A DNA stretch of 64,000 nucleotides from Elusimicrobiota bacterium (GTDB taxonomy: Bacteria > Elusimicrobiota > Elusimicrobia > UBA1565), in the NCBI GenBank assembly GCA_043819795.1, contig JBDREN010000083.1:5298-69297 (forward strand), in the 5' to 3' direction. Of the stretch, positions 10,601-60,164 are shown piece by piece (position 1 is the first letter of the stretch; every line of letters begins with the position of its first letter). The notes under the pieces are model-generated. The model was not told the origin of the DNA. It searched no databases and worked only from the letters and a program-made list of their open reading frames with translations. A program made the translations under genes and the position numbers.

Positions 10601-12225
10601 CGGCGCACCTGCTCCAGCGCGATCTCGTAGCGGCGCACCAGCTCGGCCTCCCGCAGGTGCCACTGCTTATCGAGGTTCTTCTCCTTCTGGATGTACTCCG
10701 AGATCACGGTCTGCTTCCACGTCCGGAACTGCTCCTCGATCGTCTGCTGGGTCCTCTCCAGCTCGGCGACCCGGGCCTGGTAGGCCTCCTCGAGCGTCCG
10801 GTCGCGCTGCTCGAACTGCGACTTCAGGGAAGCCCGCTCGGCCTCGACGGCCTTCTCATGCTCCTCGAGGAGCTCCATCTTGCGGCGCGTCCACTCCTCG
10901 CGCAGCGCGTTCTCCTTCGCCAAGTACTGCTCCTGCATCTCCACGTGCTTGTGCTGGGAGGCCTCCTCGAGCGCCTTCTCGCGCTCTTGCACGCGGTTCT
11001 CGGCCTCCGCCCAGCGGGCGTTGAACTCGGCTTCGAGGGCGGTGCGTTGGCGGTCCCCGTCGCGCTGGACCTCGGCCTCCCGCCGCTCGAGGTCCCGGGA
11101 CCGCGCCTGATACTCCTCCTCGAGGGCCTTGGCGCGCTGTCGCGCCCGCTCGGCGGCTTCCGCCTTTTCCTTCTCGAGCTCGTCCTCGACGCGCTTGAGC
11201 AGCTGCGCCTCCTTACGGATGTGGCTCTGCTGCTGCTGGGTCTCCATCTCGGCGTAACGCGTCTCCACGCTCTTCACACGCTTCTGGAAGTCCTCCTCCA
11301 GCTCCCGACGCCGGCGCTCGAGAAGCCCTTCGATCTCGCGCGAGCGGTCGGCCAGCGCGCGGGCACGCTCCTCGAACTGCTCCTGCACGGCCGTATCCAG
11401 CTTCTCACGCGCATCCTTCGCGCGCTGCCACAAGCCGTTCTCGAGCTCCGCCCAGGCGGCCTGCAGCTCGGCCTCGCGCTTGCCGTACTTCTCCTGCAGG
11501 GCGAGCTCCTTGGACCGGAACTCCCCGAAGAGCTTCTCCTCGCGCTCCTGGAGCTTGAGCTCGCCCTCCTTCGCGGCGGCGGCCAGCACCCGCTGGAACT
11601 CCTCGTTCTTGCGCCTAAGATCGAGTATCTCGCGCTCCTTGAGCTCGAGCTCCGCCTCGCGGTTCTTCAGCGTGTTGAGGATCTCCTCGTCGCGTTTCTG
11701 GCGCAGCCGCTGCACCATATCCTGGTCGCGGTGGAAACGGTTGACGAGCTCGGCCTTCTCGCGCTGGGAGGCCATCAGCTCGGCGTCGCGCTGCTCGAGA
11801 ATGCGCCTGAGCTCCCGCCACTGCTCCTCCTTGGAGCGGTGCGTGCCCTTCCACTGCTGGACCTCTGCCGTCAGGCGGGACAGCTCCTCGTCCATGTGCC
11901 CGCGGTCGCGCTCCACGCGCGTCCGTTCCTCTTCGCGGACCTCGAGACGCACACGGTCGCGCCAGCGCTGCTCCTGATCCCGATGATTCTTGCGCTCCTC
12001 CTCCCAGCCTTTGGACTCGTCCTTCCATGCGGCGACCTGTCTCGTCAACTCCTCCTTCTCCTGCTGGAGCATCTGCTGTCCGTTCTGGGCTTCCTGGAGG
12101 TTCCCCTTGAGGCGCACATTCATATCCTGGAGGTCACGGATCGTGGCCACGGCCCCCCGGATCGCAAGTCGCGCAGCTTCCAGATCGGTTATCTCTCGAT
12201 ATGCCTCTTCATCCCATGGGTTCAT
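4627..12225 (-). CDS. giant (~2530 aa) coiled-coil sensor histidine kinase: ~2250 aa of E/R/K/A/L/Q-rich heptad sequence then HisKA (IAHQIRNPL) + HATPase_c (GTGLGLGVA)
   Basis: Single ORF 4627..12309; real start MNPWDEEAYRE at 12225 supplied by upstream repeat unit (GGGAGGcgaccATGA); no TM segments evident; internal 58-codon tandem duplication. Confidence 0.85.
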   Translation of the reverse strand: MNPWDEEAYREITDLEAARLAIRGAVATIRDLQDMNVRLKGNLQEAQNGQQMLQQEKEELTRQVAAWKDESKGWEEERKNHRDQEQRWRDRVRLEVREEERTRVERDRGHMDEELSRLTAEVQQWKGTHRSKEEQWRELRRILEQRDAELMASQREKAELVNRFHRDQDMVQRLRQKRDEEILNTLKNREAELELKEREILDLRRKNEEFQRVLAAAAKEGELKLQEREEKLFGEFRSKELALQEKYGKREAELQAAWAELENGLWQRAKDAREKLDTAVQEQFEERARALADRSREIEGLLERRRRELEEDFQKRVKSVETRYAEMETQQQQSHIRKEAQLLKRVEDELEKEKAEAAERARQRAKALEEEYQARSRDLERREAEVQRDGDRQRTALEAEFNARWAEAENRVQEREKALEEASQHKHVEMQEQYLAKENALREEWTRRKMELLEEHEKAVEAERASLKSQFEQRDRTLEEAYQARVAELERTQQTIEEQFRTWKQTVISEYIQKEKNLDKQWHLREAELVRRYEIALEQVRRAARMEMEKTKEEHDQRRQRDEADLFGRSEKMKQDYARLERDLEDRYDRREAEAKDAHAAEVRALKEAQGRHLLQQARHLDAEYERREAEWKLRVKNLKEGHQSELLEREKQLSEKDLELSRVREEFEKLDAEKRALWEDLQSRERRHEAERVSIQEAQKRREAQREEKYIEMERGLQELWTGKEREYLSRRQEALQAQAQRFAETVQALEAERQKEREQHAAALAEADSQLAVRFEAWKRDALAESEKEKEQWLERQRRMTIREREQQKEHARAHLEALNAESNEREGELAKRRDALQAYHRKREEELADEWRLRERRFIEEQQVVLTRERQSLDELYRSREETLHSNYVSLEKQLKDDRAHKAQLLEEESAEKLKRSLKEQEDGIQRKVRQSEAEFEVKRAAQLESQRAVLEEEYERKQLELEKLQAQLQKEMREKETRLDKSYLEREAELEKRWSQRESELLQKVDEERESYRARIRYETERIAGEMREAIAQREAELKNQQDNLEREYKRRLAESRAEMKKRNDAWLDHQRREIAKEYQHFQEEHRKAMAAQAAELESRVKDLDSRRQALEAEYKSKDESLGEDLRRREQAMVSEMQDNQSRERAALDALYREREDALQKNFLQLEAELKAEWEHKQDLSKREAEDRLAAELRSFTERLNEREARWEDESRRKLEAALEKQRAALEAEYDRREGELDRLRFELEKAIRSQEADLEKAHQQRLSELESDFRKREDAANNERAQAMERLERRKVESESERAEMHRAFEDRQREMDLVLRGREEAIERERTRIEDETGRKKRELETSRMDEEKRLQEREARLEREFEKRKEESRSALAARESELRAALVEERRRLQETYEEHERVLAERQAELIYKEKQLDQAAEQRQDELARKEKALEEARLALEERAREGEADLQRAYSAREEQLRAGFAKRDAELSARTQRERKAFQEELAHRRSLLESEHGDRAAEVESAVRQKEEELAAERERLEAELARRMRELDASKLQVEKSLRERETQLENAFRAREEGVRSASALRERELRAGFERDRETLAAEQQTLEQAVRARQAELERKTEELESARKRVEDSLRKREQALEESFAQSEAELRDALAMEQQKQEQGVRARQAELERQTEGLGAAQKRVEDSLRKREQALEESFVHREAELRKELADQRTELAARFERERQEQVREIESKSAALAERSRDVEKARAGLEAEYRNRQEELQAAYQARHGELERERAELAAEEVRRSRELESFKSGVAREYRERERALEKAVSEKEAELRRAREEAEAEVSGHLDAQREALREDWAKAKAELEVEVEESRRKLKARETELREAYARKETAMRESVEEREAELERERSDLRQSVAAEREALERARAGLDARRAELERDFRERETALQREHLGREEELQRAWKKREEALLNEVSEAQERNRAELRKSSEEMHVALRDEMARREEGLDAERAALQKEFLHKVEEARRGIRREERARYDRDLQTKEDDLRAQLKEKEEEFRLHAESLEDQLRKREDLLEKQGEERRLAHERDLDAQLEHERRLLRESQRAADEDQARRREELEREMRTVLAEKESALLAANRKRLVVERTRLEAEFDERRKELEEQSAVQVEQTARLQGERLQKQQETASSELHKREAELDARDKALKEREQSGEKRLMDESAQKEAEVERRREEVEELLRGTDKKLRERLKNEEAELERRRRKLDEEMTARERQSQGREDKLAGAEVDIERRQRELRQLRDRLLSGLKPEAETGRLPQVAFETELTDLVFGIAHQIRNPLGIIQSLAEDRLSGLWVGGKERATMDAILRAIGNLRERLEQLTDFTRPLGLKPQALEVEAWIDSAVAEVARQCDEKHIRIVADVAEGVPELRGDSERLKEALLHLLLNSIEAMPEGGTLTIRARYQAARGTVRVEVSDTGAGVAPEHVKDVGRPFYTMKAGGLGLGVAIAKRIVAAHGGSFEFRSKKDAGSTSTVTLSVEAKRG

Positions 12226-12348
12226 GGTCGCCTCCCATGGAGATGGACGCGGCCATCCCCTGCGCGATGCTCGGTCATGGTCGCCTCCCACGGCAGTCGA
12301 CGCGACCATTTCCTGCGCTATGCTCGGTCATAACACTGCCTCCAGGTA
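12222..12348 (-). repeat. two tandem 57-nt copies of SD/start-codon-bearing intergenic repeat (mini-ORFs MTEHSAGNGRVDCRGRRP* and MTEHRAGDGRVHLHGRRP*), with own GGAGG SD, ATGA-coupled to each other and to the giant HK start
   Basis: Reverse complement matches repeat at 50606-50719 and 59231-59397; internal 8-bp inverted repeat ATGGTCGC/GCGACCAT; GGGAGG 6 nt before terminal ATG. Confidence 0.7.
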
Positions 12349-12547
12349 GATACGTCCGCCCCCCACGATGGGGCGATGCCCTATAGCACGAACTCTCTCT
12401 TCAACGTTAGTGTATAGCCGCAACCGGAAAAATCAAGCACTCTCAGCCATTACTTGGCCGAGCCTCGGCGGGTTCCCAGATCCGACTCCTAGCCTAGGGA
12501 AAGGATAACGGGGGGTAATTACAGATTCTTTAACGAAAATCGGGGCC

Positions 12548-12774
12548 TAACAGTCCGTGGCAAAAGTCTTCCGGGGCCTGCGATCGCCTGGATGCGGCCT
12601 GCGCCCGCGTTGCTCCTCGGTCACACCGGGCCCCGGCAGGGGCCCAGTGCCGCACGACCTCAGGAAATGCTTCGGAGCGCTGTCATCCCGTAGAGGGATG
12701 CTACCTCGTCGCGCCTTGGCTCGGCTCGCCCCGGACGATTTCGCCATCCGAAATACTTTTGCCACGGACTGTTA
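12548..12774. mobile_element. MITE-like element: 20-bp perfect terminal inverted repeats TAACAGTCCGTGGCAAAAGT flanking ~187 bp, in intergenic region between two HK genes
   Basis: Left IR 12548-12567, right IR 12755-12774 (exact reverse complement); right IR overlaps stop codon of PAS-HK gene; symmetric spurious ORFs MAKVFR on both strands. Confidence 0.45.
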
Positions 12775-13839
12775 AGGCCGCGATCGAGCGGGGAAGACAA
12801 CGGTGACGGCCGTCCCTCGGCCGGCCTCGCTGTCGAAGGAGATGGTCGCCTCGTGCTCGGCCAGGACGCGCTTGGCGAGATAGAGCCCCAGACCCGTGCC
12901 GTCCTCTTTGGTCGTGAAGAAGGGCGCGCTGACCTTCGCCAACACCTCGGGCGCCATCCCCGCGCCCGAGTCCCCCACGACGAGACGCGCCCCCCCCCGC
13001 TCCGGGACGTCCGTGACGACGCGCAGGCGCCCCCCTTTCGGCATGGCCTCGATCGCGTTGACCAGCAGGTTATGGACCACGGCGCGGACATGCTGCTCGT
13101 CGAGGAGCAGTCTCGGGATGTCGCCGAGCCGCACATCGAGCTCGATCCGCTGCTTCTGGCACATCTTCTCGACGAGACGGACGACGCCGCGCGCCACCTC
13201 GTTGAGCGAGCCCTCGCGCAAGAGAGACTTCCCCACCTTGGCGAAGTCCAGAAGGGCCCGTATCGAAAGCGACCCGTGCCGGGCGTTGCGGAGGATCATC
13301 TCGAGGTTCTCTTTCATCTTGGAGTCGGGGGAGAGGGACTCGAGCCCGAACTCGGCCGTGCTGGCGATGACGTGCAGCGGCGTGCGCATCTCGTGAGCGA
13401 AGGTCGCCGCCATTCGCCCGACAGCGCTGAAGCGCTCCATCCTGACCAACGCCTCCTGGACGGCCTTGTGCTCGGGGGCCGTCTCGAAGTCGGCCACGGG
13501 GGGGCTGATCATGACGAGGAAGGCCTCGGGGCCCTTCCCCAGCGAGCGGACGGTCAAGAACACCCTTTCCGGGCTCCCGTCGCGGCGCGTCATCCGCGCC
13601 TCGTAGTTTTTGAGCACCTTCACGTTGCAGGCCGCCTTGAGCAATCCGACGCATTCCTCCCGCCTCGGGAAGAACTCCGCGAAGTCGCGATCGACAGCCT
13701 CCTCGAGGGGGACGCCAAGGAGCTCGGCGGCTCCGCGGGACCACGTCCGGACCACGCGGGAACCGTCGAGCCCGACGAGCGCATCCTCGGACTCGTCGAA
13801 CATGCAGGCGAAAAGGCGGTCTTTCAACCGTTCTTCCAT
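12772..13839 (-). CDS. PAS-domain sensor histidine kinase (PAS + HisKA FAHEMRTPL + HATPase_c)
   Basis: Motifs FAHEMRTPLHVI, NLLVNAIEAM, GDSGAGM, GTGLGLYLAKR. Confidence 0.85.
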   Translation of the reverse strand: MEERLKDRLFACMFDESEDALVGLDGSRVVRTWSRGAAELLGVPLEEAVDRDFAEFFPRREECVGLLKAACNVKVLKNYEARMTRRDGSPERVFLTVRSLGKGPEAFLVMISPPVADFETAPEHKAVQEALVRMERFSAVGRMAATFAHEMRTPLHVIASTAEFGLESLSPDSKMKENLEMILRNARHGSLSIRALLDFAKVGKSLLREGSLNEVARGVVRLVEKMCQKQRIELDVRLGDIPRLLLDEQHVRAVVHNLLVNAIEAMPKGGRLRVVTDVPERGGARLVVGDSGAGMAPEVLAKVSAPFFTTKEDGTGLGLYLAKRVLAEHEATISFDSEAGRGTAVTVVFPARSRP

Positions 13840-14028: not shown

Positions 14029-14919
14029 ATGAAGCCCGAGTCACCAACCGCAGCGCAGAAGCCGGCCGAGATCCGCGAGGGCCTGTGGAAGATCAAGCTG
14101 CCCAATCCGAAGTCCTTCTTCAAGATCGGGGTCGGCAAGAAGCACGCCCAGGCGAACTCTCTGTTCCTGGAGATCGACGGCAAGCGCCGCTTCGAGATCG
14201 GAAACGACTGCGACACCTGCCACTTCTGGTTCAAATGCCTGCAGGATCCTAAGATCTTCGCCCAGAAGAAAGTCGTCAACCTCCCGAAGTCCTTATCGGT
14301 GCCGCGCCCCCTCGACGCAAAGCTCATCCGCGAGATCCTCCCGGTGATCGAGCTCATGGACAAGGGGGATCACTACATATTCAACACGAAGCTCCAGCTC
14401 GCCGGACCGTACCGTTCCGACGACGAGTCCTCCTACTTCTACAACAGCGAGTTCATGGAGATATGGGACATCGAGGACCCCGCCTCCGAGGACCTCCTCT
14501 CCGGCTGGGAGCATTACGAGGGCAAGACCCCGCGCGTCTTTCGGCACGACGGTGTGATCGAAAAGCAGTTCGACTTCGTGATCCCTCTCGTCCCCCAACA
14601 ACGTCTCAAGCAGGAGAACATACGCGTCTACCAGCAGATGATCGCGGGCGGGGACCGGCCGCGGGTCCTGCTGCTGGGCATGCTCCACCGCCCCGTCCCC
14701 GGGAGCGTCTCCTCCGGACAGACGAAGAACCTGCATTCGTACTTCGCGGGCTTCGTGCTCGACGGGCACCACAAGCTGGCCGCCTATCAGCGCGCCGGGG
14801 TCCCGGTGAACTCCCTCGTAGTCTTGTCCCAGAAGGCCAGCAAGTACTTCCTGCTCGAGGGCGAATCCGCCCCTCAACGGACGCGCCTCGAGGACCGCCT
14901 GGCCTCGATGGCGACCTGA
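14029..14919 (+). CDS. hypothetical cytoplasmic protein (296 aa), lower GC than surroundings, no recognisable domain
   Basis: ORF with AGGAG SD and strong promoter; codon composition less GC-skewed. Confidence 0.6.
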   Translation: MKPESPTAAQKPAEIREGLWKIKLPNPKSFFKIGVGKKHAQANSLFLEIDGKRRFEIGNDCDTCHFWFKCLQDPKIFAQKKVVNLPKSLSVPRPLDAKLIREILPVIELMDKGDHYIFNTKLQLAGPYRSDDESSYFYNSEFMEIWDIEDPASEDLLSGWEHYEGKTPRVFRHDGVIEKQFDFVIPLVPQQRLKQENIRVYQQMIAGGDRPRVLLLGMLHRPVPGSVSSGQTKNLHSYFAGFVLDGHHKLAAYQRAGVPVNSLVVLSQKASKYFLLEGESAPQRTRLEDRLASMAT

Positions 14920-15167
14920 CCCGCCTCTTACACGAGCCCCTGTGGCGGAGCGTGGATCGTGCTGGGCCCTCCGGCCCTTTCGATCTCGCCACCCGGGACC
15001 AAGCGGCGGTGCCGGCGGCTTGGGTCCGGGCCTCAGCCGCCTCGGCCCACGCGCTCCTCCGAAAACGCTCCCGACGGGGACCCCCGATCCGCCTTAGGCC
15101 CTAAGTCCCGAGAAAGCATGGGCCCCCCGGCACTGGCCTTCTAGGACTTTTCCCCTATCCTATCGGT

Positions 15168-18100
15168 ATGCGGCGGACCAATGGGCCCAGGTGGGTTCTA
15201 CTCGCGGCCTGCGCGTTGAGCCTCCAGGGCGCCGCCCGCGCCGGGACCGGTCCCCGTCCCTCTCCGAAGAGACTCCAGGAAGAGAAGCTGCCCGGCGCCA
15301 TCGTCGCGAGGCTCCCTGTTCCCGCCGCCTTCGCGTCTCCGGGGGCCCCGGCTTCGACGCTCTCCTCTCCGGCGGTCCTGCTCGCGCGGGAGATCGATGA
15401 GCTGTTCGCCGGCCTGAGCAGTGAGACCAACGACGGCACGCGGGCTCTCCGCCAGCCGGCTCCGGAAAAAGCCCCGCCCCGGGGAACCGGCTCCGGACGG
15501 CTTTCGTCGCGATCGTCTCCCGCGGCGGGAACGCGCGAGCCCGCCGAGGTTTTCGCCGCCCTGGACCGACGGCTCTCCGACATCCGCGCCCGGATCATCG
15601 ATACGATCGACGATCCCGAGGAGGTCGCGATCCTCCTGGCCCGCGTCGACCGGATCCGTGGCGTCCTGGCCAAGCTCCGGAGGGCCGGGGAAACGGGCCA
15701 AGCCCGTTCCCTGTCCGGGGCGATGGCCGGACTGGCGCGGGCCCTCGGGCGGGGGACCGATGACGAGAACCTCTCCAGGTTCGAGACCCTGGTCGACCGC
15801 CTGATGCAAGCGCGGTCGCTGCCCCCCGACCGGCTCGGAACGATCTTCGACAACACGCCCGAGTTCCCGGACAGCGATGTTCTCGCCCCCGTCCCGGCGG
15901 AGGGCTTCAAGGCCCGGGCCCCGCGAGCAAGGGCGAGCGGAGCGGGCGTTTCGCAAGCGGCCCTGTTGGACATCGACCGCTACCCACGGCCCCTGACCGG
16001 GATCCGTGTCGACGGCGGCGTCGTTCCGAAGCCGAGAGGGCCGGGAACCTCGGCCAAGGCCGAGCCGGAGTCCGAGGTCGGCCGCCCACAGCGACGAGCG
16101 GTCACCGCTTCGCAGGGGCTTGAGCGCTCGGCTGTCGCGGCGCTCTCGCCCTTCGCGGGACTGAGCCCGAAAGGCCGCCAGGACCTGTTCCGAAAGGACC
16201 GGGCCGCTCTCAGGCGGGAGCTGCTCGCCGTCGGACTCCGGGCGCTCGAGGAGGGCGACGCGGAGCTCGAGCCGTATCGGGAGGATCTGGACGCCGCGGA
16301 CGGAAGGCTCTCCGGGATGCGTAAAGCGCTGCTGGCCCGGCTCGGGTTCGATGCGCCCCCGCACAACGACCAGGAGCGCAGCGGGCGGTTCGCGACTCTC
16401 ACGAAAGAAGCCCCCCATCTGTCTCTCTATTTCGCGCGGCGCGGGATTTACCAGATGCGCATGCGGCAGGCCCACGGCGAGCATGCCGTGCCGCCGGAGA
16501 CGCGCTTCGCACCCTGGGAACTCGGCATCGAGGACGGCAGCGAGAAAGCCGTCGTCTACGCTACGGCCAAGGACGGCGACCGCACGTTCTACGGGCTGCG
16601 CCGGGAGTTCCAGGACGGCTCCTCGCGCTTCGCGGCGACCGACGGAGCGGAGGGGCTGGTCGTCGTGGTGTCCCCCTCCGATAGCCGCGAGATCCGCACG
16701 CGTATCCGTTTCGACGACCAGGGCCGGCCGGATCGCACCCGGACCTCGATCATCGACACGGGGACCGGCAAGAGGATCCGGGAGGAGATCGCCGACATCG
16801 CGCGGGCGCTCACGCGCTTCGTCGATTACGATCAAGCCGGCGACGCGGTGAGGGTCCTGACCCTGGACAGCGGCACCGGCGAGCAGGTGGTGGAGGACCG
16901 CCGGCAGGGCCGCCGCGTCGCGACCGACAAAGACGGAAAGGTCACGATCACGCCGATCCGAGGCGGAGCCCAAGCCTGGCAGCAGCAGGGCCGGCTCGAT
17001 GAGAGCGGCCGCTTCATCCTCGACCGCCTGGTGCGCGAAGACGGCAGCGTCGTCGAGCGCGTCAGCCCGCACGTCCTGAAGATATCGCGAGACGGCAAGG
17101 CGCAGGGCTATGAGATCGTCGTCGACTCCATCTTCCATGGCGCCCGGGGGCCTGAGCGCGAAGCGGAGTCCTCCAGGATCGCCCGCGAGATCATCGCGGC
17201 GCTCGGCTACCAGGACAAAGACGACCGGCGCTCGCGCCCCCTTAGCAACTGGCTCTCCGACACCTGGACGAAGGACGAGCGGACGCGCGGCGTCGCGATG
17301 ACGGTCGATCCGCGCGGAAGGTTCCAGGTCGTCTACAGCTACAAAGACGGGACCAAGCGCATCGAGCGCGCCAAGTACGGCCTTTCGACCTCGTACGGCG
17401 ACGGGAAGCGGGAGCTCGCGCTCGTGACGCTGAGGCCGGTCCATACCGACCGCCAGGGCCGGGCGCGGCTGGACCCCCGGCGCTACCGCGAGTACCTGGC
17501 CGGCGGCGGCTACAACCAGTGGCATTCCACTTTCGAGTTCAAGAAGGCCGGCTGGTTCTCGAACGCGAAGACGATCGAGCACGTCTCCCTCATCCGCTAC
17601 GGCCGGGACGGAAGCCTTCCACGCCTGGGTCCCGGGAGCGGGGGCGAGCGGGACGGAGACTCCGGCAGCGGCCGCTGGACGGAACGCGGCCGGGAGAAGA
17701 AGGACGAATTCGTCAATGAGGTCGGCGGGACATCGACCTTCGGCATCGTGGGGACCGCGATCCATGAGGCGCCGGTGGTCGGGGACGTCCTGCAGGCCGG
17801 CGGAGCGGTCGGAAAGACGCTCTGGACGGGCATCATGGCGGCTCCGCCCACCTTCATCTATGCGGTCACCAAGGACACGGATTACGGCCTCGCCATGTCG
17901 GGAAGCTACGCGAAGAACCCCCTGGTGAACCGTCTGGTGGGAGACCAGGGACACCTCGACCGCATGGACGGCAAGATGTGGGAGGTCGTCCTTATCGAGG
18001 CCCGCGAAAACCGCCGAAAAGACCTCGATCAGATGGGCTACACCGAGGGGAATACGGACCCGGAGGAGCATCAGCGTTTGCTCTCCCAATGGCGCGGAGA

Positions 18101-20408
18101 CCGCTTCGTGTCCCCCGAGGATTGCCTCAAATCACATCCGCGCGGCTATTGCGATCGGTTCCGGTACAGCAGAGAGGAGCTCATGCGCGCGGTGCGCGGC
18201 TACGGCGCCCTGACCTGGGGCGACCGCCTGATCGAATCGGCCGAGGGCAAGAAGGGCGCGGCCTACTGCGCCACGGCCGGCGCGGGGTGGGGGCTCAAGG
18301 TGTTCGAGAACGTGGGCGAGACGCTCTTCAATCCCGTCATCTGGGCCACTTTCGGCGTGGGCAAGGGAGTGCAGGCCATGACGGCCATGCGCGCCGCGGG
18401 CAACAGCTCGCTCGCGGTCTCCGGCGCGCTCTCCACCGCTCGCGTCACGCACGCGCTCTTGAGCACGACGCTCTACAGCACGTGGGTCGTGGGCGGGGTG
18501 GACAACCTCGGCCAGACCGTGGTCGCGCTCCAGGAAGGCGACAGAGAACAGGCATTGAAGAAGTCGGCCGACCTCGGCACCGATCTCTTCTTCGTCTGGA
18601 TGATGGCCCGCGAGTCTCGCAGCCACAAGCTCCGCCAGAAGGCCCGACAGGCGCTCCTAAAGGAGCAAAGGCTGATCACAAAAGAATACAAGGCCGCTTC
18701 CAAAGCGGTCCGCACTAAGTCCGCGCACGCGACGAACGGCAAAGCCCCGGTCAAGAGCGCCGAGAAGGCGCTCCAGTCCAAGGCCGCGCACGCGACGAAC
18801 GGCAAAGCCCCGGTCAAGAGCGCCGAGAAGGCGCTCCAGTCCAAGGCCGCTCACGCGACGAACGGCAAAGCCCCGGTCAAGAGCGCCGAGAAGGCGATCC
18901 GTTCCAAGGCCGCGCACGCGCAGAAGCCCGCGAAGCCGGCCCCCGAGCCAAAAACGGAGGCCGCACGGGGCAAGACGACGGGCAAGGGCGAGACGCGGGC
19001 CACGAGCGGAGCCCCCAAGAAGCCGGCGCCGAGGACGATCAGGGAGCGCATGCACGAGTGGAAGGCCCGCCTGGTGGAGAACAAGCCCAGGGTCATGGAC
19101 TTTCTGAAGAAGCGTATGCCTAAGCTCAAGTCCTCTCAAGCATCCAAGGCCAAAGCGCTCAAGGCGCGCCAGACCGCAAGGCACACCAAGGCGAACCGGG
19201 CGAAGAAGACGGAATCCAAGTCCGGCAAGAATGCGAAGAGGGGAGGCGAGTCGCCGCTCCGGAATCTCGGCGAACGAGTCGTGGCGGTCGCCAAATCCTT
19301 GATCTCGAAGGGCAAGACGACGGGAAGGAAAGCCCGCAACGCCGGCAAGCTCAAGAAGGCCGCTGTCGCGCCCCGCGCAATCCTGAGTCCCGAGCTCAAC
19401 AGGTTCGCCTCCGAGACGGAGCCCGTACCCGCACCGGACCCGGCGGACTCGGACGCGCGATACACCGCCGATGAGGAGCCTGGAGAAGAGGCCGGCGTGG
19501 ATCCCGGGCAGCGCGGAGAAGACGACGGCCGCGCCGCCCGGGATGCCGCGAAGCCCCGGGCCGAGCCCTTGATCGGAGCCGGCCGCGCGGCGGATTCTCC
19601 CGCCGGCGCCCCGGATTCCGGCGGGGATCAGGCGAGCCCAGGCTCAGGCGGCGATTCCGGAAGCGAAGCCGGCGGCGGCGAGACCGGTTCGGGCACGGGA
19701 AGCGGCGCTCTGGGCGGCGGAAGTCTCGCGAGCGGATCGGGGAGCGGAGGCTCGGGCGGCGGCCGCAAGGGTGCGGGGCGGAATCCCCGCGTGCATGGGC
19801 GGGCGGGACAGAAGTTCGACGGTGGACGGACTACCGTCGCTCGCCTGACCCCGACTTCCCCCCGGCCGTTGCCCTCCCTGCAACCGGAGCGGCCCCGAAT
19901 CATGCCGAGAGCCCCCGAGCCCATAGATCCTTACCGCCAAGCGCACGCTTCGCCGGAGCGCCGGTCCGTCCCGCCAGTCGAGGAGAAACCCGCGCCCCGG
20001 GTGTCCAGGAAGAGTTCGCCGCCCGGGTTCAACGCGACGGGCGGGTCGGGCGGGTCTCTAGCGCCCGGCGGCCCGGAGTTCAAACCGCGGGACCCGTTCC
20101 CCGAGGGCAGGAAGGCGGCTCCGCCGGCGACACCTTCCCCGCCCCGAACCGAGGCGCGCAGCGGCGCTCCCGCCGCCGCGGCCGCCTCTCCCGCCGCGCA
20201 CGACGGCTTCTTCGAGATCCCGCGACACCGCCTCCGCCCGGCCGGCCACCTCCCCAACGGCCGCCTTCCCGAACGGGGGCAAGAGAGCCCCTACCGCGCG
20301 CACGCGCTCAGCCTCCTGCTGGAGCTGGCCGGGCTGGGGGCCGCGATCTACCTTTTTAGGCTCTCAAGATTCCCGTTCCTTATCGGCATCGCGCGCAAAC
20401 GTCTCTGA
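15168..20408 (+). CDS. giant secreted/membrane-anchored protein (1746 aa): signal peptide, large unknown domain, 3x21-aa tandem repeats, lysine/alanine-rich histone-H1-like basic region, G/S-rich and P-rich low-complexity region, C-terminal TM anchor
   Basis: Single long ORF; N-terminal MRRTNGPRWVLLAACALSLQGAARA; C-terminal LSLLLELAGLGAAIYLF; contains two in-frame copies of the 45-nt GC palindromic repeat. Confidence 0.7.
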   Translation: MRRTNGPRWVLLAACALSLQGAARAGTGPRPSPKRLQEEKLPGAIVARLPVPAAFASPGAPASTLSSPAVLLAREIDELFAGLSSETNDGTRALRQPAPEKAPPRGTGSGRLSSRSSPAAGTREPAEVFAALDRRLSDIRARIIDTIDDPEEVAILLARVDRIRGVLAKLRRAGETGQARSLSGAMAGLARALGRGTDDENLSRFETLVDRLMQARSLPPDRLGTIFDNTPEFPDSDVLAPVPAEGFKARAPRARASGAGVSQAALLDIDRYPRPLTGIRVDGGVVPKPRGPGTSAKAEPESEVGRPQRRAVTASQGLERSAVAALSPFAGLSPKGRQDLFRKDRAALRRELLAVGLRALEEGDAELEPYREDLDAADGRLSGMRKALLARLGFDAPPHNDQERSGRFATLTKEAPHLSLYFARRGIYQMRMRQAHGEHAVPPETRFAPWELGIEDGSEKAVVYATAKDGDRTFYGLRREFQDGSSRFAATDGAEGLVVVVSPSDSREIRTRIRFDDQGRPDRTRTSIIDTGTGKRIREEIADIARALTRFVDYDQAGDAVRVLTLDSGTGEQVVEDRRQGRRVATDKDGKVTITPIRGGAQAWQQQGRLDESGRFILDRLVREDGSVVERVSPHVLKISRDGKAQGYEIVVDSIFHGARGPEREAESSRIAREIIAALGYQDKDDRRSRPLSNWLSDTWTKDERTRGVAMTVDPRGRFQVVYSYKDGTKRIERAKYGLSTSYGDGKRELALVTLRPVHTDRQGRARLDPRRYREYLAGGGYNQWHSTFEFKKAGWFSNAKTIEHVSLIRYGRDGSLPRLGPGSGGERDGDSGSGRWTERGREKKDEFVNEVGGTSTFGIVGTAIHEAPVVGDVLQAGGAVGKTLWTGIMAAPPTFIYAVTKDTDYGLAMSGSYAKNPLVNRLVGDQGHLDRMDGKMWEVVLIEARENRRKDLDQMGYTEGNTDPEEHQRLLSQWRGDRFVSPEDCLKSHPRGYCDRFRYSREELMRAVRGYGALTWGDRLIESAEGKKGAAYCATAGAGWGLKVFENVGETLFNPVIWATFGVGKGVQAMTAMRAAGNSSLAVSGALSTARVTHALLSTTLYSTWVVGGVDNLGQTVVALQEGDREQALKKSADLGTDLFFVWMMARESRSHKLRQKARQALLKEQRLITKEYKAASKAVRTKSAHATNGKAPVKSAEKALQSKAAHATNGKAPVKSAEKALQSKAAHATNGKAPVKSAEKAIRSKAAHAQKPAKPAPEPKTEAARGKTTGKGETRATSGAPKKPAPRTIRERMHEWKARLVENKPRVMDFLKKRMPKLKSSQASKAKALKARQTARHTKANRAKKTESKSGKNAKRGGESPLRNLGERVVAVAKSLISKGKTTGRKARNAGKLKKAAVAPRAILSPELNRFASETEPVPAPDPADSDARYTADEEPGEEAGVDPGQRGEDDGRAARDAAKPRAEPLIGAGRAADSPAGAPDSGGDQASPGSGGDSGSEAGGGETGSGTGSGALGGGSLASGSGSGGSGGGRKGAGRNPRVHGRAGQKFDGGRTTVARLTPTSPRPLPSLQPERPRIMPRAPEPIDPYRQAHASPERRSVPPVEEKPAPRVSRKSSPPGFNATGGSGGSLAPGGPEFKPRDPFPEGRKAAPPATPSPPRTEARSGAPAAAAASPAAHDGFFEIPRHRLRPAGHLPNGRLPERGQESPYRAHALSLLLELAGLGAAIYLFRLSRFPFLIGIARKRL
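15899..15946 (+). repeat. 45-nt GC-rich palindromic repeat copy, in-frame inside giant secreted protein (EGFKARAPRARASGAG)
   Basis: Match to consensus GGAAGCCTTCAACGCCTGGGCCCCGCGAGCGAGGGCGAGCGGGAC. Confidence 0.6.
17606..17657 (+). repeat. 45-nt GC-rich palindromic repeat copy, in-frame inside giant secreted protein (GSLPRLGPGSGGERDG), flanked by GGACGGA direct repeats
   Basis: ggacggaagccttccacgcctgggtcccgggagcgggggcgagcgggacgga. Confidence 0.6.
18717..18905 (+). repeat. 3 x 63-bp perfect/near-perfect tandem repeats encoding KAAHATNGKAPVKSAEKALQS
   Basis: Units start 18717, 18780, 18843; partial fourth unit. Confidence 0.8.
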
Positions 20409-49495: not shown

Positions 49496-50609
49496 CGAAC
49501 GCGGCTTCCGCGGCGGCGAGCGCCAGCTCCTGTATCTGGCCGCTCATCTGCGCGCCCGGGGTCACGAGAACGTCGTGGTCTGCCGGGGACGCGAGGCCCT
49601 CGAGGCCGAGGCCCGCCGCCAGCGCTTCCGAACGATGCGCCTACCCTTCCTCGGCGAATGGGACCCGGTCTCCGCGTGGCGGCTCCGGAGGGCGTCCCGG
49701 TCGGCGCGGCACGCCCCCGTGCTCCACGCCCACACCGCTCACGCCGCCGCCCTCGCCTACCTGGCGTCGCGCTTCGGAGGTCCCCCGTGGGTGGCGCACC
49801 GCCGCGTCGACTTCCACCTCAACGGCTCGCTCAGCCGCCGTCTCAAATACGACACCGCGCCCCGCGTGATCGCCGTCTCCGAGAGCATCCGCCGCATCCT
49901 GGTCGCCGACGGAATGGAGGGCTCGCGCATCACGGTCGTCCCGGACTGCATTCCTCTCACTGACGATGAGGCGCGCCTCGCGGGTCTCGACGCCGGTCCG
50001 ATGCGCCGGGCCACCCGCTCGGAAACCGCCGCCATACGCCGTCCCCTCGCCGAGAACCTGGGCCTTCCCGAGACCGGGCCCTGGATCGGCAACCTGGCGG
50101 CCCACGTTCCGCACAAGGACCAGGCGACCCTGATACGAAGCCTGCCTTCTGTGCTGAAGGCGCTGCCGAAAGCGCGCCTGCTGCTCGTGGGCGACGGCCC
50201 TCTCCGGACGGAGCTCGAGGCGCTGGCTCGGTCGCTGGGCGTCGAATCGGCCGTCCGCTTCGCCGGCCACCAGAGCGATCCGGCGCCGTGGCTGAGCTGC
50301 CTCGACGTCTACGTCCAGTCGTCCTGGGGAGAGGGGATGGGATCGGTGCTTCTCGAGGCGATGGCCTGCGGCGTCCCGATCGTCGCGACGACGGCGGGAG
50401 GGATACCCGAGGTGATCGAGCACGGGCGCAGCGGGCTCCTCGTGCCCCCGCGCGATCCGGAGCGAATGGCGGGTGCGATCGTCGACTCCTTGCTCGATCC
50501 CGAAAGCGCCCGGCGCAGGGCGGACGCGGCGGCCGAGGATCTGAAGTCTTTCGGCCTCAGCCGCGTCGGTGACCGCATGATCGCGCTCTATCGCGAGGTG
50601 ACGGAGTGA
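49461..50609 (+). CDS. glycosyltransferase family 4
   Basis: GEGMGSVLLEAMACGVPIVATTAGGIPEVI. Confidence 0.75.
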   Translation: MAKRFTLFHLDSERGFRGGERQLLYLAAHLRARGHENVVVCRGREALEAEARRQRFRTMRLPFLGEWDPVSAWRLRRASRSARHAPVLHAHTAHAAALAYLASRFGGPPWVAHRRVDFHLNGSLSRRLKYDTAPRVIAVSESIRRILVADGMEGSRITVVPDCIPLTDDEARLAGLDAGPMRRATRSETAAIRRPLAENLGLPETGPWIGNLAAHVPHKDQATLIRSLPSVLKALPKARLLLVGDGPLRTELEALARSLGVESAVRFAGHQSDPAPWLSCLDVYVQSSWGEGMGSVLLEAMACGVPIVATTAGGIPEVIEHGRSGLLVPPRDPERMAGAIVDSLLDPESARRRADAAAEDLKSFGLSRVGDRMIALYREVTE

Positions 50610-50719
50610 CCGAGCATAGCGCGGTTTCGGCTGCGTGCCTCAGCCATTCCCTCGCGTTTGGCCGCAAACGCTTCGGTCACAGGAATGGTCGCGTCGATCG
50701 CCGCGGGAGGCGACCATGA
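50606..50719 (+). repeat. 114-nt long form of SD/start-bearing intergenic repeat: mini-ORF GTG..TGA (37 codons) whose GTG overlaps upstream GT4 stop (GTGA) and whose TGA overlaps downstream GT2 ATG (ATGA)
   Basis: Near-identical to 59231-59344; internal hairpins GCGTTTG-gccg-CAAACGC and ATGGTCGC..GCGACCAT; GGGAGG 6 nt before ATG 50716. Confidence 0.7.
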
Positions 50720-58094: not shown

Positions 58095-58127
58095 TGATTC
58101 CTATTTGATATAATTTTGCTGGAAAAC

Positions 58128-59234
58128 ACGATGAAACCCTCCCGCCCGTCGCTCAAACGCCTGCTTTCCATCCTGGCGCGATTCCGCCGGAGACGAGTGC
58201 TCGTTCTCGGCGATCTGATGCTCGACCATTTCGTTCGGGGACGCGTGAACCGCCTCTCGCCCGAGGCGCCGGTGCCGGTCGTCGCCGTCGACGAGGAGAC
58301 CCATATGCCGGGAGGGGCCGGCAACGTCTGCAGCAACCTTAGCGCCCTCGGCGCGGCCGTCTCGGTGTTCGGCGTGCTCGGCGACGACGCGGCCGGCGGC
58401 CAGCTGATCCGGGACCTCCAGGCCAGAGGCGTGGACACCGGAGGCGTCGTGCTCGACGCCTTGCGCGTGACGACGCAGAAGTGCCGCATCGTCGCGGAGC
58501 ACCAGCAGGTGGTCCGGTTCGACCGGGAGACCCCTCGCGTGCTCTCCGCGCAGACGCAGTCGAAGCTCCTCCGGAAGCTGAGCGAGGCGATGAGCGGGGC
58601 CGACGCGGTGGTGGTTTCCGATTACGGAAAAGGCGTCGTCACGGCGAACGCCGTGCGTAAGGCGCTGCGGGCGGCGCACCGCGCCCGGCTGCCGGTCGTC
58701 GTCGACCCGAAGGTGGAGCACTTCCGCCGCTATAAGGGAGTCGACTGCATCACGCCGAACCTCCAGGAGGCGTGGGGCGGCATGGGACTGCACCCCTCCC
58801 AGGACGAGGCCGCCATCCACCGGCTCGGCCGCCGCATCCTGGCGGCCCTCCGCGTGCGCTCCGTGCTGATTACCCGGGCGGAGAAGGGCATGACCCTCTT
58901 CGCGGCGAACGATCCGGGGCCGATCTTGCCGTCGCGCACGCGCGGGGCGGAAGCCCTCGACACCCGGGCCCCGCGAGCAAGGGCGCGCGGGGCGGGCAAG
59001 ATCGTCGTCGACCACATCCCGACCCAAGCCAAGGAGGTCTACGACGTGACCGGAGCCGGGGACACCGTCGTCAGCGTGCTGTCTCTGGCGCTCGCCTCAG
59101 GCGCCCGCCTCTATGAGGCGGCCGTTCTGGCGAACCTGGCGGCGAGCATCGTCGTGGGCAAGCTAGGGACCGCCACCATCTCCGCCGACGAGATCAAGCG
59201 GGCGGTCCGCGAATCCGGCCGGAGGCGCTCGTGA
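58128..59234 (+). CDS. hldA: D-glycero-beta-D-manno-heptose-7-phosphate kinase (RfaE/HldE domain I type, stand-alone) with in-frame 45-nt repeat insertion (58945-58995)
   Basis: RVLVLGDLMLD, PGGAGNV, DPK, VTGAGDTV ribokinase-family motifs. Confidence 0.85.
   Translation, partial: TMKPSRPSLKRLLSILARFRRRRVLVLGDLMLDHFVRGRVNRLSPEAPVPVVAVDEETHMPGGAGNVCSNLSALGAAVSVFGVLGDDAAGGQLIRDLQARGVDTGGVVLDALRVTTQKCRIVAEHQQVVRFDRETPRVLSAQTQSKLLRKLSEAMSGADAVVVSDYGKGVVTANAVRKALRAAHRARLPVVVDPKVEHFRRYKGVDCITPNLQEAWGGMGLHPSQDEAAIHRLGRRILAALRVRSVLITRAEKGMTLFAANDPGPILPSRTRGAEALDTRAPRARARGAGKIVVDHIPTQAKEVYDVTGAGDTVVSVLSLALASGARLYEAAVLANLAASIVVGKLGTATISADEIKRAVRESGRRRS
58945..58995 (+). repeat. 45-nt GC palindromic repeat copy inserted in-frame into heptose kinase (EALDTRAPRARARGAG)
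   Basis: ggcggaagccctcgacacccgggccccgcgagcaagggcgcgcggggcggg. Confidence 0.6.
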
Positions 59235-59397
59235 CCGAGCATAGCGTGGTTTCGGCTGCGTGCCTCAACCATTCCCTCGCGTTTGGCCGCAAACGCTTCG
59301 GTCACAGCAATGGTCGCGTCGATCGCCGTGGGAGGCGACCATGACCGAGCATAGCGCAGGAAATGGTCGCGTCGATCGCCGTGGGAGGCGACCATGA
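59231..59397 (+). repeat. long (114 nt) + short (57 nt) tandem units of SD/start-bearing repeat between hldA and kdsB; GTGA overlap with hldA stop, ATGA between units, ATGA into kdsB
   Basis: Direct comparison with 50606-50719 (4 substitutions) and 12222-12335. Confidence 0.7.
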
Positions 59398-60164
59398 TCC
59401 TAAGGCGCAGCCGCTCGAGAACGCTCGTCGTGATCCCGGCGCGTCACGCCTCGACGCGCCTGCCCGGCAAGGTGCTCAAGCCCCTCGGCGGCATCCCGGT
59501 GGTCGAGTGGGTGCGGCGGTCCGCGATCCGGGCCGACCGCGGACCCGTCGTCGTCGCGACCGACCACCCGGACGTCCTGCACGCCGTCGAGCGTTTCGGC
59601 GGCTCGGCGGTACTCACCTCGGAGCGCTGCTCCTCCGGGACCGATCGCGTCGCCGAGGCGCTGCGGATCGTCGAGGCCGCCCGCGGGCTCCGCTTCCGCG
59701 CCGTCATCAATCTGCAGGGCGACGAGCCGTTCATCCGTCCGGCCACGATCCGCAGGGTCGCGGCCCTGATCGAGAAAGGGGCGGACATCTCGACCGCGGT
59801 CGTCCCGCTCTCCTCGCGGCGCGCGGCCGCCGATCCGAACGTCGTCAAAGCGGCCGTCGCGGCCGACGGACGCTGCCTCTATTTCTCCCGCTCGGCCATC
59901 CCCTTCGCCAACGGCGTGGACCGCCGCCTTTCCTTCCGCCATATCGGCATATACGGCTTCACTCGCGAGGCGCTACGGCGCTTCGTGCGCCTGCGCCCTT
60001 CGCCTCTCGAGCGCGCCGAGCGCCTCGAGCAGCTGCGCGCCCTCGAGGACGGCATGACGATCGTAGCCGCGCGCGTCGCCGATCCCGGCATCGCGATCGA
60101 CACCCCGGCCGATCTTGCGCGCGCGCGCCGGCGATGCCGAGGCAGGACCAAGACACATGGCTAA
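59394..60164 (+). CDS. kdsB: 3-deoxy-manno-octulosonate cytidylyltransferase
   Basis: [17 protein letters not shown]..., LQGDEP. Confidence 0.9.

Follow-up and report, generated by a model that had tools for sequence, protein, structure and literature searches.

MIRUs, reportedly described by Supply et al. in 1997, have been treated as a mycobacterial peculiarity and used mainly for strain typing. They are dispersed, often tandem repeats of 40-100 bp that lie in operons, co-oriented with the genes, and contain a small ORF that overlaps the preceding stop codon with its start, and the following start codon with its stop, at -4 nt (PMC12548453, PMC3184786, PMC4213456). Tetranucleotide direct repeats and empty versus filled sites have been documented for them, and they are thought to be mobile, inserting at start codons with little effect on expression (PMC12548453, PMC3184786, PMC4213456).

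Here we analyse a window (the whole 64-kb stretch of DNA under study) from an uncultured Elusimicrobiota bacterium, in which the junction between the cell-wall sugar genes hldA and kdsB is filled by a 114-nt unit followed in tandem by a 57-nt unit. An earlier note on this DNA had reported this arrangement and stated that every junction is GTGA or ATGA; sequence reading and the ORF list bear out both points, with GTGA at 59231-59234 and ATGA at 59341-59344 and 59394-59397. Sequence comparison makes it fairly likely that such units represent a small dispersed repeat, mobile but non-autonomous, which is transparent to translation, ribosomes being relayed through it by termination-reinitiation. 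This architecture is already on record for mycobacterial MIRUs; the Elusimicrobiota family is a further instance of it, unrelated in sequence. The features concerned are:

58116..59234, plus strand: hldA, D-glycero-beta-D-manno-heptose-7-phosphate kinase (ORF list; NCBIfam TIGR02198)
59221..59225, plus strand: GGAGG in the 3' end of hldA, 5 nt before GTG 59231 (sequence)
59231..59344, plus strand: long unit, which is mini-ORF1, 114 nt, GTG start, 37 codons, TGA stop (sequence, ORF list)
59247..59304, plus strand: 58-nt insert that makes a short unit long (alignment against the unit)
59310..59342, plus strand: 3' hairpin of the long unit, arms ATGGTCGC (59310-59317) and GCGACCAT (59335-59342) (predicted folds)
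59341..59397, plus strand: short unit, which is mini-ORF2, 57 nt, ATG, 18 codons, TGA (sequence, ORF list)
59394..60164, plus strand: kdsB, CMP-Kdo synthetase (NCBIfam kdsB models)
50606..50719, plus strand: second copy of the long unit, between GT4 and GT2 glycosyltransferase genes (sequence, repeat search)
12222..12331, minus strand: two tandem short units, 12331-12275 and 12278-12222 (module matches, nhmmer)

HldA scores 355 bits against the rfaE_dom_I model TIGR02198 (cut-off 345), and hldA is 69% and 61% identical to the PfkB genes found upstream of kdsB in two relatives, L033 and L035 respectively; KdsB lies above the cut-off for TIGR00466/NF003952 and is 100% identical to protein P0001 of an Elusimicrobiota MAG at NCBI. 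The stop codon of hldA (59232-59234) falls within the first GTGA, the TGA of mini-ORF1 overlaps the ATG at 59341-59344, and the TGA of mini-ORF2 overlaps the kdsB ATG inside the last 4 nt of the short unit, which thus provides both the start codon and the ribosome-binding site of kdsB. In this short unit the Shine-Dalgarno sequence (SD) occupies 59383-59388 and the hairpin arms 59363-59370 and 59388-59395; the unit is identical to one in metagenome contig L026 (nhmmer E = 1.3e-18). The GGAGG at the end of hldA is probably the ancestral SD of kdsB, now positioned for mini-ORF1, and G-rich, SD-like runs occur at the equivalent place in the empty sites of relatives. Since a consensus-site scan found neither promoter-like nor terminator-like sites in the junction (terminators were sought over 58800-59600), co-transcription of hldA and kdsB is plausible.

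The window holds six units at three loci, a repetition far beyond chance: the 36-nt 3' module has four matches with at most 3 mismatches, against 0 in 100 dinucleotide shuffles, and the 15-nt 5' module has five, against a mean of 0.22 expected. At the second locus the GT4 glycosyltransferase stop lies within GTGA 50606-50609 and the GT2 glycosyltransferase ATG is at 50716. The minus-strand pair forms the 5' leader of a gene for a 2532-codon coiled-coil protein, whose ATG (12225-12223) lies in the second unit; the two units differ from each other at 10 positions, and a GGAGG stands 7 nt upstream of the ATG of the first. This pair was absent from the earlier listing.

The basic, widespread form of the repeat is the 57-nt unit, made of 53 nt plus a shared NTGA, so that the mini-ORF, its start and stop codons included, spans 57 nt; the 114-nt unit was found in this window only. 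Judged by alignment, the latter is a derivative of the former, through a 58-nt insert and a 1-nt deletion in the GGAAATGG run that together add a net 57 nt and keep the frame. The insert resembles an inverted half-unit: its reverse complement aligns with unit nt 2-27 (TGACCGAAGC..GCGAGGGAATGG) with a score of 23, versus a shuffle mean of 13.6 (sd 2.7), a value reached by 21 of 2000 shuffles, and the match is interrupted by a 14-nt hairpin, GTTTGGCCGCAAAC (59281-59294). In the predicted fold of the long unit, an outer stem pairs 59231-59239 with 59297-59305. No further copy of the insert was found at any of the other loci compared, and the same composite structure is common to both long units, at two loci. 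These two are 96% identical (family D14) and differ at unit nt 17 (C/T), 38 (G/A), 78 (G/C) and 99 (C/T); the earlier count of four differences, three of them nonsynonymous, is exact (A/V, S/N and R/S, plus one synonymous). The basic form, the derivative status of the 114-nt unit and the MIRU-like mobile behaviour of the family had been missed in that first reading.

Beyond the window we located about 20 further loci, of which nearly all belong to high-GC Elusimicrobiota MAGs or metagenome contigs. An exact-pattern scan of GTDB species representatives returned 16 true matches, all in Elusimicrobia MAGs, and one chance match elsewhere; more copies lie in groundwater and soil metagenome contigs, and every true match came from Elusimicrobia/Elusimicrobiota MAGs or environmental contigs. 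Viral contigs gave 0 matches with the 3' module and 0 with the 5' module. On this sequence distribution the family is confined to one clade of high-GC Elusimicrobiota. Our search of the literature on MITEs carrying an SD or start codon and on Elusimicrobia repeats found no description of this repeat family.

Comparative counts rest on 26 distinct-context units, comprising units of 51-57 nt and the 111-nt and 114-nt forms, whose 3' module was set by the pattern used in the search, which accounts in part for its invariance. All 26 abut the start of a downstream ORF, in a single orientation and co-oriented with the gene; each copy provides that gene's GGGAGG ribosome-binding site and ATG, and the 3' end is ATGA in 25. 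Ten downstream proteins that were checked are unrelated housekeeping proteins (HPr, EI, MiaA, NuoD, PanC, FolE, GlyA, Obg, TatC and NuoE). Because the Pfam match starts within the first five residues in eight of the ten (at residues 21-24 in FolE and NuoE), we take the ATG of the unit to be the gene start; where such units occur, start codons may be wrongly placed by annotation pipelines. Some ten further loci have a long upstream open frame that is terminated by the TGA of the unit, and some copies are the sole leader of a first gene. Tandems comprise the 114+57 nt array at 59231-59397, the 57+57 nt array at 12331-12222, and partial plus full units in L002 and L029. NTGA overlaps account for more than half of the operon junctions in the loci examined (33/60).

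The earlier note had proposed checking whether hldA and kdsB overlap directly in relatives that lack the element: they do, through a bare 4-nt ATGA, GTGA or TTGA, in five of five relatives. The junction orthologous to GT4/GT2 is likewise a plain NTGA overlap in four of four (L033, L035, L038 and L039), and L035 has a unit of its own in front of lptB (14658-14714), at a junction where the genes of L033 and L038 overlap. These empty sites, together with the unit of L035 at a different junction, point to insertion into stop/start overlaps. Units in the window are flanked by NTGA..ATGA, a tetranucleotide direct repeat, and no insertion site was shared between two genomes among the loci compared. 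Identical units stand at two loci of one MAG (L004 and L009), and units differ by a mean of 3.5 nt within a genome versus 6.7 between genomes (permutation p = 0.0006). As far as such comparisons go, the family probably acts as a mobile element of the MIRU kind that inserts into NTGA junctions; transposition and its machinery are what we infer from this pattern. The nearest relatives are distant (KdsB at most 73% identical), and precise loss in relatives is an alternative to insertion. No filled/empty polymorphism in one population was seen among the loci compared. High conservation between species could also come from a host-level function.

Across the units compared, the open frame is conserved, but the peptide is not. 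Lengths of 57, 114, 111 and 51 nt are all multiples of 3, and indels of +57, +54 and -6 keep the frame. The start codon is ATG or GTG in 25 of the 26 units, an A follows the ATG in 25 of 26, and an SD-like core lies upstream of the mini-ORF start at 13 of 26 loci, versus 15% of random positions. Minor alleles fall at codon positions 1, 2 and 3 in the proportions 33/37/16 among the 26 distinct units, and three 56-nt units keep the nucleotide sequence while encoding a completely different peptide (MTEHSEEMVASI..); in 3/3 of these a stop occurs at the second codon after the ATG, versus 3/87 control gene starts (p about 4e-5). The claim that the peptide is not under selection had been based on the four differences between the long copies, which is a thin basis, but the 26 distinct units confirm it. 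The 'function' at the RNA or DNA level that was suggested along with it may be no more than the insertion being harmless. As for serial reinitiation from hldA through two mini-ORFs into kdsB, the layout is real and the frame is preserved on comparison, while translation of the mini-ORFs is something that we infer. The variants of 57, 56, 51, 111 and 114 nt offer natural material for the study of termination-reinitiation.

The element sits at the TGA of NTGA stop/start overlaps in operons, or at the ATGA starts of first genes. Under the mobile-repeat reading, three features of its design keep the insertion harmless: the ancestral start codon and its SD now open the mini-ORF within the element, the 3' end of the element supplies a new GGGAGG SD 5 nt before a new ATG, and the mini-ORF TGA overlaps this ATG. 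Ribosomes coming off hldA would reinitiate at mini-ORF1, then at mini-ORF2, then at kdsB, and a ribosome passing along the mini-ORF would open the 8-bp hairpin in which the new AUG is paired. As each insertion would regenerate ATGA at its end, tandem stacking would be possible, here of a long and a short unit.

In the long unit, the 17-nt loop of the 3' hairpin holds most of the GGGAGG (59330-59335), and its 3' arm reaches over the A and T of the following ATG (59341-59343). The hairpin occurs in the minimum-free-energy folds of four of four sequences tested. Its arms are invariant and therefore yield no covariation signal, and the 3' arm was in addition prescribed by the search pattern; instead of compensating changes, two variants and the 51-nt unit have a weakened hairpin. 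Compared with shuffles, the stability of the short unit is not unusual (z = -0.75), and the long units have z = -2.7 and -1.45. A riboswitch or other Rfam cis-regulatory RNA was rejected for want of a covariance-model match: Rfam returned one tRNA only for the whole window at gathering score, and no match for 59100-59500 at E up to 10. A leader-peptide attenuator was also rejected, as the peptide is not conserved and there is no terminator-like site in 58800-59600.

The likeness to MIRUs covers several traits at once: units of 51-57 nt and 111/114 nt that each lie directly 5' of a co-oriented gene start; an internal ORF overlapping the upstream stop and the downstream start at -4 nt; two unit sizes within an array (77 and 53 bp for MIRU; a period of 110 and 53 nt here); tandem arrays, empty and filled orthologous sites, and a tetranucleotide direct repeat. 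When rotated to begin at ATGA, MAP MIRU292 runs from ATGA to ATGA over 57 nt and 18 codons, with the SD GAGGAGGAG ahead of the ATG, and so matches the present unit in length and layout. Homology was tested for MAP MIRU292 only, using the sequence from PMC7977185. In core global alignment, the consensus unit scored 1 (shuffle mean -1.7) and the window unit -4 (mean -1.0), and 1002/3000 and 2115/3000 shuffles, respectively, scored as high; homology to MIRU is rejected for MIRU292, the score falling within the shuffle distribution. The two families also differ in host (Elusimicrobiota here, Mycobacterium there), with cores that are not detectably related, in the 8-bp hairpin that the 3' module here forms over the start codon, and in the long form, which here is a short unit plus a nested inverted half-unit and not a 24-nt-longer variant. 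With an independent family in Elusimicrobiota, inserting into stop/start overlaps and bringing along a relay ORF would seem to be a strategy of general use to small mobile DNA where genomes are gene-dense and high in GC. The family also provides a second system in which to look for the mobilising enzyme by phyletic profiling.

Other known systems share part of this anatomy. Classical MITEs (Correia/NEMIS, ERIC, RU-1/2/3, Nezha) are likewise short, non-autonomous, multi-copy and lineage-specific, with short direct repeats flanking them, and co-transcribed elements with ORFs or expression signals are among them (PMC10969869, PMC3184786). A 2024 MITE review makes no mention of a Shine-Dalgarno sequence, start codon or stop codon. 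The present units differ from MITEs in occurring in one orientation, strictly at start codons, in supplying the SD and ATG of the host gene, and in being without terminal inverted repeats: the 5' end CCGAGCATAAGCG and the reverse complement of the 3' end TCATGGTCGCCTC show no inverted match, and within a short unit only the internal 8-bp hairpin is a strong inverted repeat. Of the roughly 40 window ORFs scanned, none had a transposase Pfam domain, and no other mobilising gene was identified. REPs and REPINs, which RAYT mobilises, have a conserved GTAG head and form extragenic palindromes in both orientations, with a RAYT gene flanked by REPs. The present repeat shares with them a GC-rich hairpin as conserved core, and with REPINs a long form in which a unit and an inverted partial unit fold into a long stem; insertion beside a fixed tetranucleotide is compatible with single-strand transposition of the IS200/IS605 type, from which PATEs derive. 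However, the units here have no GTAG head, are not extragenic in the usual sense, never lie between convergent genes and always keep one orientation; their hairpin abuts the element end and is not subterminal. The Pfam scan of about 40 ORFs found no RAYT or TnpA gene in the window. Finally, synthetic bicistronic design (BCD) and natural uORF-delivery coupling also use a short leader ORF whose stop overlaps the gene start, with the SD of the second cistron embedded in that ORF, and the helicase activity of the ribosome clears structure around the start codon (PMC12548453). The repeat described here is instead natural, repeated and apparently self-propagating, not engineered or gene-specific.

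Alternative explanations can be weighed against these data. It is unlikely that the repeat is a host-recruited cis-regulatory RNA, in which the hairpin on the start codon and the mini-ORF form a translational control module kept before many genes, and which may act by strict coupling, by using the Arg-rich mini-ORF to sense the availability of ribosomes or arginyl-tRNA, or by protein binding. The blocks TGACCGAGC, GGAAATGGTCGCGTC and GGGAGGCGACCATGA are almost invariant across species, including some columns outside the search pattern, the AUG is occluded by the hairpin in every fold, the frame is preserved and the copies that are the sole leader of a first gene would suit such a module; yet the downstream genes are functionally unrelated, no insertion site is common to genomes and orthologous junctions are empty in relatives. 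Even at E up to 10 Rfam has no match, covariation is lacking and variants break the stem, the 56-nt variants retain neither the peptide nor its Arg codons, and there is no terminator or alternative structure. Quite unlikely, too, is an actively mobile sequence homing to NTGA junctions and ATGA starts by a new mobilisation mechanism, its convergence with the 53-nt period and 18-codon ORF of MIRUs reflecting an optimum for ribosome termination-reinitiation or a very old shared origin of an overlooked class of 'translation-transparent' mobile DNA in high-GC bacteria; this reading cites the lack of inverted terminal repeats, the lack of a recognisable transposase nearby and the strict orientation with translation.

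Two further explanations have far lower probability. We give hardly any credence to the idea that functional small proteins (a basic peptide of 18 aa and a 37-aa form) are made from the mini-ORFs, the repeat being a small multi-copy gene: the ORFs are open in every copy, with start codons and SD-like sequences, and the C-terminal GRRP is constant, but this GRRP is the SD-ATG block GGGAGGCGACCATGA read in frame, substitutions fall mostly at codon positions 1 and 2 (33/37/16), 3/4 differences between the long copies are non-synonymous, and the 56-nt units make an unrelated peptide from nearly the same DNA. Very unlikely, although somewhat less so, is that the long+short tandem is an assembly artefact, in which the 36-nt 3' module common to both units served to join two alleles or loci. 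At 114 and 57 nt, the two units are not alike in structure, the window has another tandem pair (12331-12222) whose units show 10 differences, full units are preceded by partial ones in independent assemblies (the L002 unit at 6511, and L029), tandem arrays are the norm for the analogous MIRUs, and, were the tandem false, the family and the insertion at the hldA-kdsB junction would still stand. On the other side, the units are about as long as an assembler k-mer, and there is a suspicious join elsewhere: from the unit onward, L028 and L003 match at 100% identity for 1276 nt, and upstream of it they are unrelated, a probable case of the mis-joining of contigs to which assemblers may be prone at such repeats.

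Two tandem copies of a small repeat, each carrying a mini-ORF, occupy the junction between hldA and kdsB, and every boundary in the series is a stop/start overlap. The layout described in the earlier note, a 114-nt and a 57-nt unit joined by GTGA and ATGA, matches both the sequence and the ORFs; a third locus of the window carries a similar array.

58116..59234, forward strand: hldA-like ORF, its TGA stop lying within GTGA at 59231-59234
59231..59344, forward strand: long unit of 114 nt, mini-ORF1 of 37 codons, TGA within ATGA at 59341-59344
59341..59397, forward strand: short unit of 57 nt, mini-ORF2, TGA within the ATGA of the kdsB start (59394)
12331..12222, reverse strand: two tandem 57-nt units, ahead of the gene for a 2532-codon coiled-coil protein

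The flanking genes are named by NCBIfam models, hldA by TIGR02198 rfaE_dom_I (355 bits for a cut-off of 345) and kdsB by kdsB models with scores above cut-off. As had been noted, four positions (17, 38, 78 and 99 of the unit) distinguish the 114-nt unit from the copy at 50606..50719, and three of the changes are non-synonymous. A 36-nt 3' module occurs four times in the window and never in 100 shuffles, and a 15-nt 5' module five times for 0.22 expected; the repeat is no chance match.

The basic form of the unit is 57 nt long, with consensus ATGACCGAGCATAAGCGAGGAAATGGTCGCGTCGATCGCCGTGGGAGGCGACCATGA, and successive short units are spaced by 53 nt, sharing the 4-nt ATGA. It comprises three blocks.

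5' block, conserved: TGACCGAGC
Middle block, conserved, leading into an 8-bp hairpin: arms ATGGTCGC and GCGACCAT around a 17-nt loop
3' block: GGGAGGCGACCATGA, with a Shine-Dalgarno (SD) sequence (core GGAGG) 5 nt 5' of the ATG, which the TGA overlaps

In all folds, the hairpin loop holds most of the GGGAGG, and the 3' arm includes a portion of the next AUG; the stability of the short-unit hairpin is not exceptional, and covariation lends it no support. The 114-nt form, found in two copies and in the window only, can be derived from a short unit by insertion of 58 nt after nt 16 and loss of one base in the GGAAATGG run, a net gain of 57 nt. The reverse complement of this insert aligns to nt 2-27 of the unit, with a 14-nt hairpin breaking the alignment (score 23; shuffles average 13.6, and 21 of 2000 score as high). 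The insert being an inverted half-copy, the long unit can fold its 5' end onto it.

We scanned GTDB species representatives with the pattern CGCGTC-N9-GGGAGGCGACCATG, from which the final A was deliberately omitted so that the ATGA ending was left open to later test. Of the 17 stretches retrieved, 16 are true units, and the MAGs that carry them are all of Elusimicrobia, from groundwater or comparable settings; the remaining match, in Kribbibacterium, lacks the 5' module and was discarded as chance. A metagenome scan provided seven more contexts; the viral contigs scanned gave no matches, and the unit matched no Rfam family. The total is 26 short units in distinct contexts, to which the two long units and one 111-nt variant are added, and an nhmmer profile retrieved a further, diverged unit in the related contig L035. 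Because the search pattern imposed the 3' module, the module's lack of variation partly reflects the way in which the copies were retrieved. The 111-nt variant (L019:1511-1621, reverse strand, on another contig) has its 5' hairpin arm interrupted by a nested insert of 54 nt with GGTCG on either side, and its mini-ORF is still open; as 32 nt of the insert recur with 91% identity at another locus (L014:2590-2621), the insert belongs to a third small repeat family.

All units are co-oriented with the downstream ORF, whose start is the ATG of the unit. Ten of these ORFs were identified with Pfam (ptsH, ptsI, miaA, nuoD, panC, folE, glyA, obg, tatC and nuoE), and the Pfam match starts at residues 21-24 in FolE and NuoE and no later than the fifth residue in the other eight proteins. 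These are unrelated housekeeping genes, which makes a common regulon unlikely.

The sites can be compared with those of relatives, here contigs that encode distant KdsB homologues (67-73% identity) and the same LPS-core operon. hldA and kdsB overlap by 4 nt in all five (ATGA, GTGA, ATGA, TTGA and GTGA), which answers the earlier note's question of whether the two genes overlap directly where the element is absent. Likewise, the GT4/GT2 junction, filled in the window by the 50606 unit, is a 4-nt overlap in all four relatives that cover it. The window thus has NTGA-[unit(s)]-ATGA where relatives have NTGA. The reverse case is found in L035, where a 57-nt unit (14658-14714) separates an unnamed gene from lptB; these genes overlap in two other contigs, L033 and L038. 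This diverged unit (ATGACCGAGCATAGCGCAGGGAATGGTCGACCGATGATCCGTAGGAGGCGACCATGA) lies 5' of lptB on a contig where hldA/kdsB and GT4/GT2 are both empty, and lptB may begin earlier than annotated, since its annotated start lies 9 nt 3' of, and in frame with, the ATG of the unit. No insertion site is common to two genomes. Targets are abundant: NTGA overlaps make up 33 of the 60 co-directional junctions at the examined loci.

Units within one genome differ by 3.5 nt on average, against 6.7 between genomes (permutation p = 0.0006), one MAG has identical units at two loci, and the composite long unit is found at two loci of the window; these cases point to copying within lineages. At some sites the likeness between the 5' end of the unit and the beginning of the gene that follows continues past ATGA: over ATGACTGAA on both sides in L007:5784-5850, ATGACT in L006:5842-5905 and [AG]TGACCGAG in L002:6177-6245, all loci outside the window. 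Three of the 26 downstream genes open with MTE, as the mini-ORF does. Behind this likeness could lie a target that is longer or chosen with the aid of homology, or else gene conversion.

The peptide encoded by the mini-ORF does not appear to be under selection, as the earlier note had proposed. Minor-allele counts at codon positions 1, 2 and 3 are 33, 37 and 16, and in the three 56-nt units the encoded peptide (MTEHSEEMVASI...) is quite different. Variation is concentrated in nt 11-18 and the hairpin loop. Unlike the peptide, the open frame is kept: large length variants are of +57, +54 and -6 nt. In all three 56-nt units, the mini-ORF continues through the ATG to a stop exactly two codons beyond it (CAT GAC TAA, CAT GAC TGA, CAT GCC TAA), whereas only 3 of 87 control gene starts have a stop at the same position (p ~ 4e-5). 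The first codon is ATG or GTG in 25 of 26 units, and the ATG at the 3' end is followed by an A in 25 of 26, where the background rate is 66% (p = 2.6e-4). In 13 of 26 cases the mini-ORF start is preceded, at a distance of 4-17 nt, by an SD-like core, compared with 15% of random positions (p = 3e-5); at hldA this core is the GGAGG at 59221-59225, where the kdsB SD sits in relatives. Such patterns of frame, start, A and SD would be expected if the mini-ORFs were translated and termination beside the downstream start were selected.

We infer that, at the DNA level, the unit is a non-autonomous mobile repeat that would insert either at the TGA of an NTGA junction or at an ATGA start codon, with an outcome resembling a 3-4-nt target duplication; no transposase was found among approximately 40 ORFs of the window. 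Each insertion would recreate an ATGA, which would explain tandem stacking. The operon transcript would include the unit, as the junction has no promoter-like or terminator-like site. Ribosomes ending hldA could reinitiate at the overlapping GTG by means of the ancestral SD, translate mini-ORF1, terminate on ATGA, and reinitiate on mini-ORF2 and next on kdsB, each reinitiation being aided by the unit's own GGGAGG. Translation of the mini-ORF may also open the hairpin over the AUG, and insertion would be nearly neutral for operon expression. [quoted passage not shown] The earlier interpretation is supported in part.

That assembly produced the tandem is an unlikely reading. L028 is 100% identical to L003:5895-7170 over 1276 nt from the unit's second base on and wholly different upstream, probably an assembly join through the 57-nt repeat. 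This is a warning for MAGs carrying the family: 57-nt repeats can mislead assemblers, and the exact hldA-kdsB tandem therefore still calls for caution. Tandems are nevertheless natural in this family, as shown by the diverged pair at 12331-12222 and by combinations of a partial and a full unit in other assemblies.

The closest parallel is with mycobacterial MIRUs, whose architecture is that of the Elusimicrobiota unit. MIRUs are 40-100-bp units present in ~40-50 copies per genome and transcribed within polycistrons, with tandem 77-bp and 53-bp forms in senX3-regX3, ORF ends that overlap neighbouring genes, tetranucleotide direct repeats, and empty and filled sites (PMC3184786, PMC4213456). When rotated, MAP MIRU292 (sequence from PMC7977185) spans 57 nt from ATGA to ATGA, has 18 codons and an SD 5' of the ATG, and equals the Elusimicrobiota unit in length and layout; compared with window 59341-59397, both have a period of 53 nt, an 18-codon ORF and an ATGAC start. 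In this single MIRU sequence, similarity of the core to our unit is no greater than with shuffled sequence. With a shared architecture and an unrelated core, the element is therefore classed as MIRU-like in its working, outside the MIRU sequence family. Other classes were set aside: a classical MITE, as terminal inverted repeats are absent, and REP, as the unit lacks a GTAG head and occurs in a single orientation. We found no description of such a repeat family in the literature on Elusimicrobiota, and the unit constitutes a new, sequence-unrelated case of MIRU-like, translationally coupled intercistronic mobile repeats.

A second repeat family in the window, unrelated to the first, is palindromic and GC-rich, with ~11 copies of ~50-66 nt (CGGGACGGAAGCCTTCAACGCCTGGGCCCCGCGAGCGAGGGCGAGCGGG) on both strands.

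58939-59008: copy inside hldA
15893, 17604, 24352, 25470, 32844, 38772, 38829 and 51463, forward strand: other copies
56544 and 61785, reverse strand: other copies

The copy inside hldA coincides with a 30-aa in-frame insertion in HldA (GPILPSRTRGAEALDTRAPRARARGAGKIV), absent from two orthologues, which breaks the TIGR02198 match into two stretches and resembles an RPE-like intragenic insertion, here in an LPS-core enzyme. The 2532-codon gene preceded by the two-unit array (4627-12225, reverse strand) encodes a Glu/Arg/Leu-rich coiled-coil-like protein and is rich in internal repeats, among them a 174-nt tandem (7096-7443). Upstream of its leader, an AT-richer non-coding stretch with no consensus promoter or terminator contains a 32-nt inverted repeat (12543-12574 / 12748-12779; 88% complementary, arms 173 nt apart). 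Finally, a 1767-codon ORF at 15105-20408 (forward strand), with no Pfam match, contains a 111-nt segment that occurs three times, spaced by 63 nt (18689-18925); two of the REP-like palindromic copies (15893 and 17604) fall within its span, and it may represent more than one gene.
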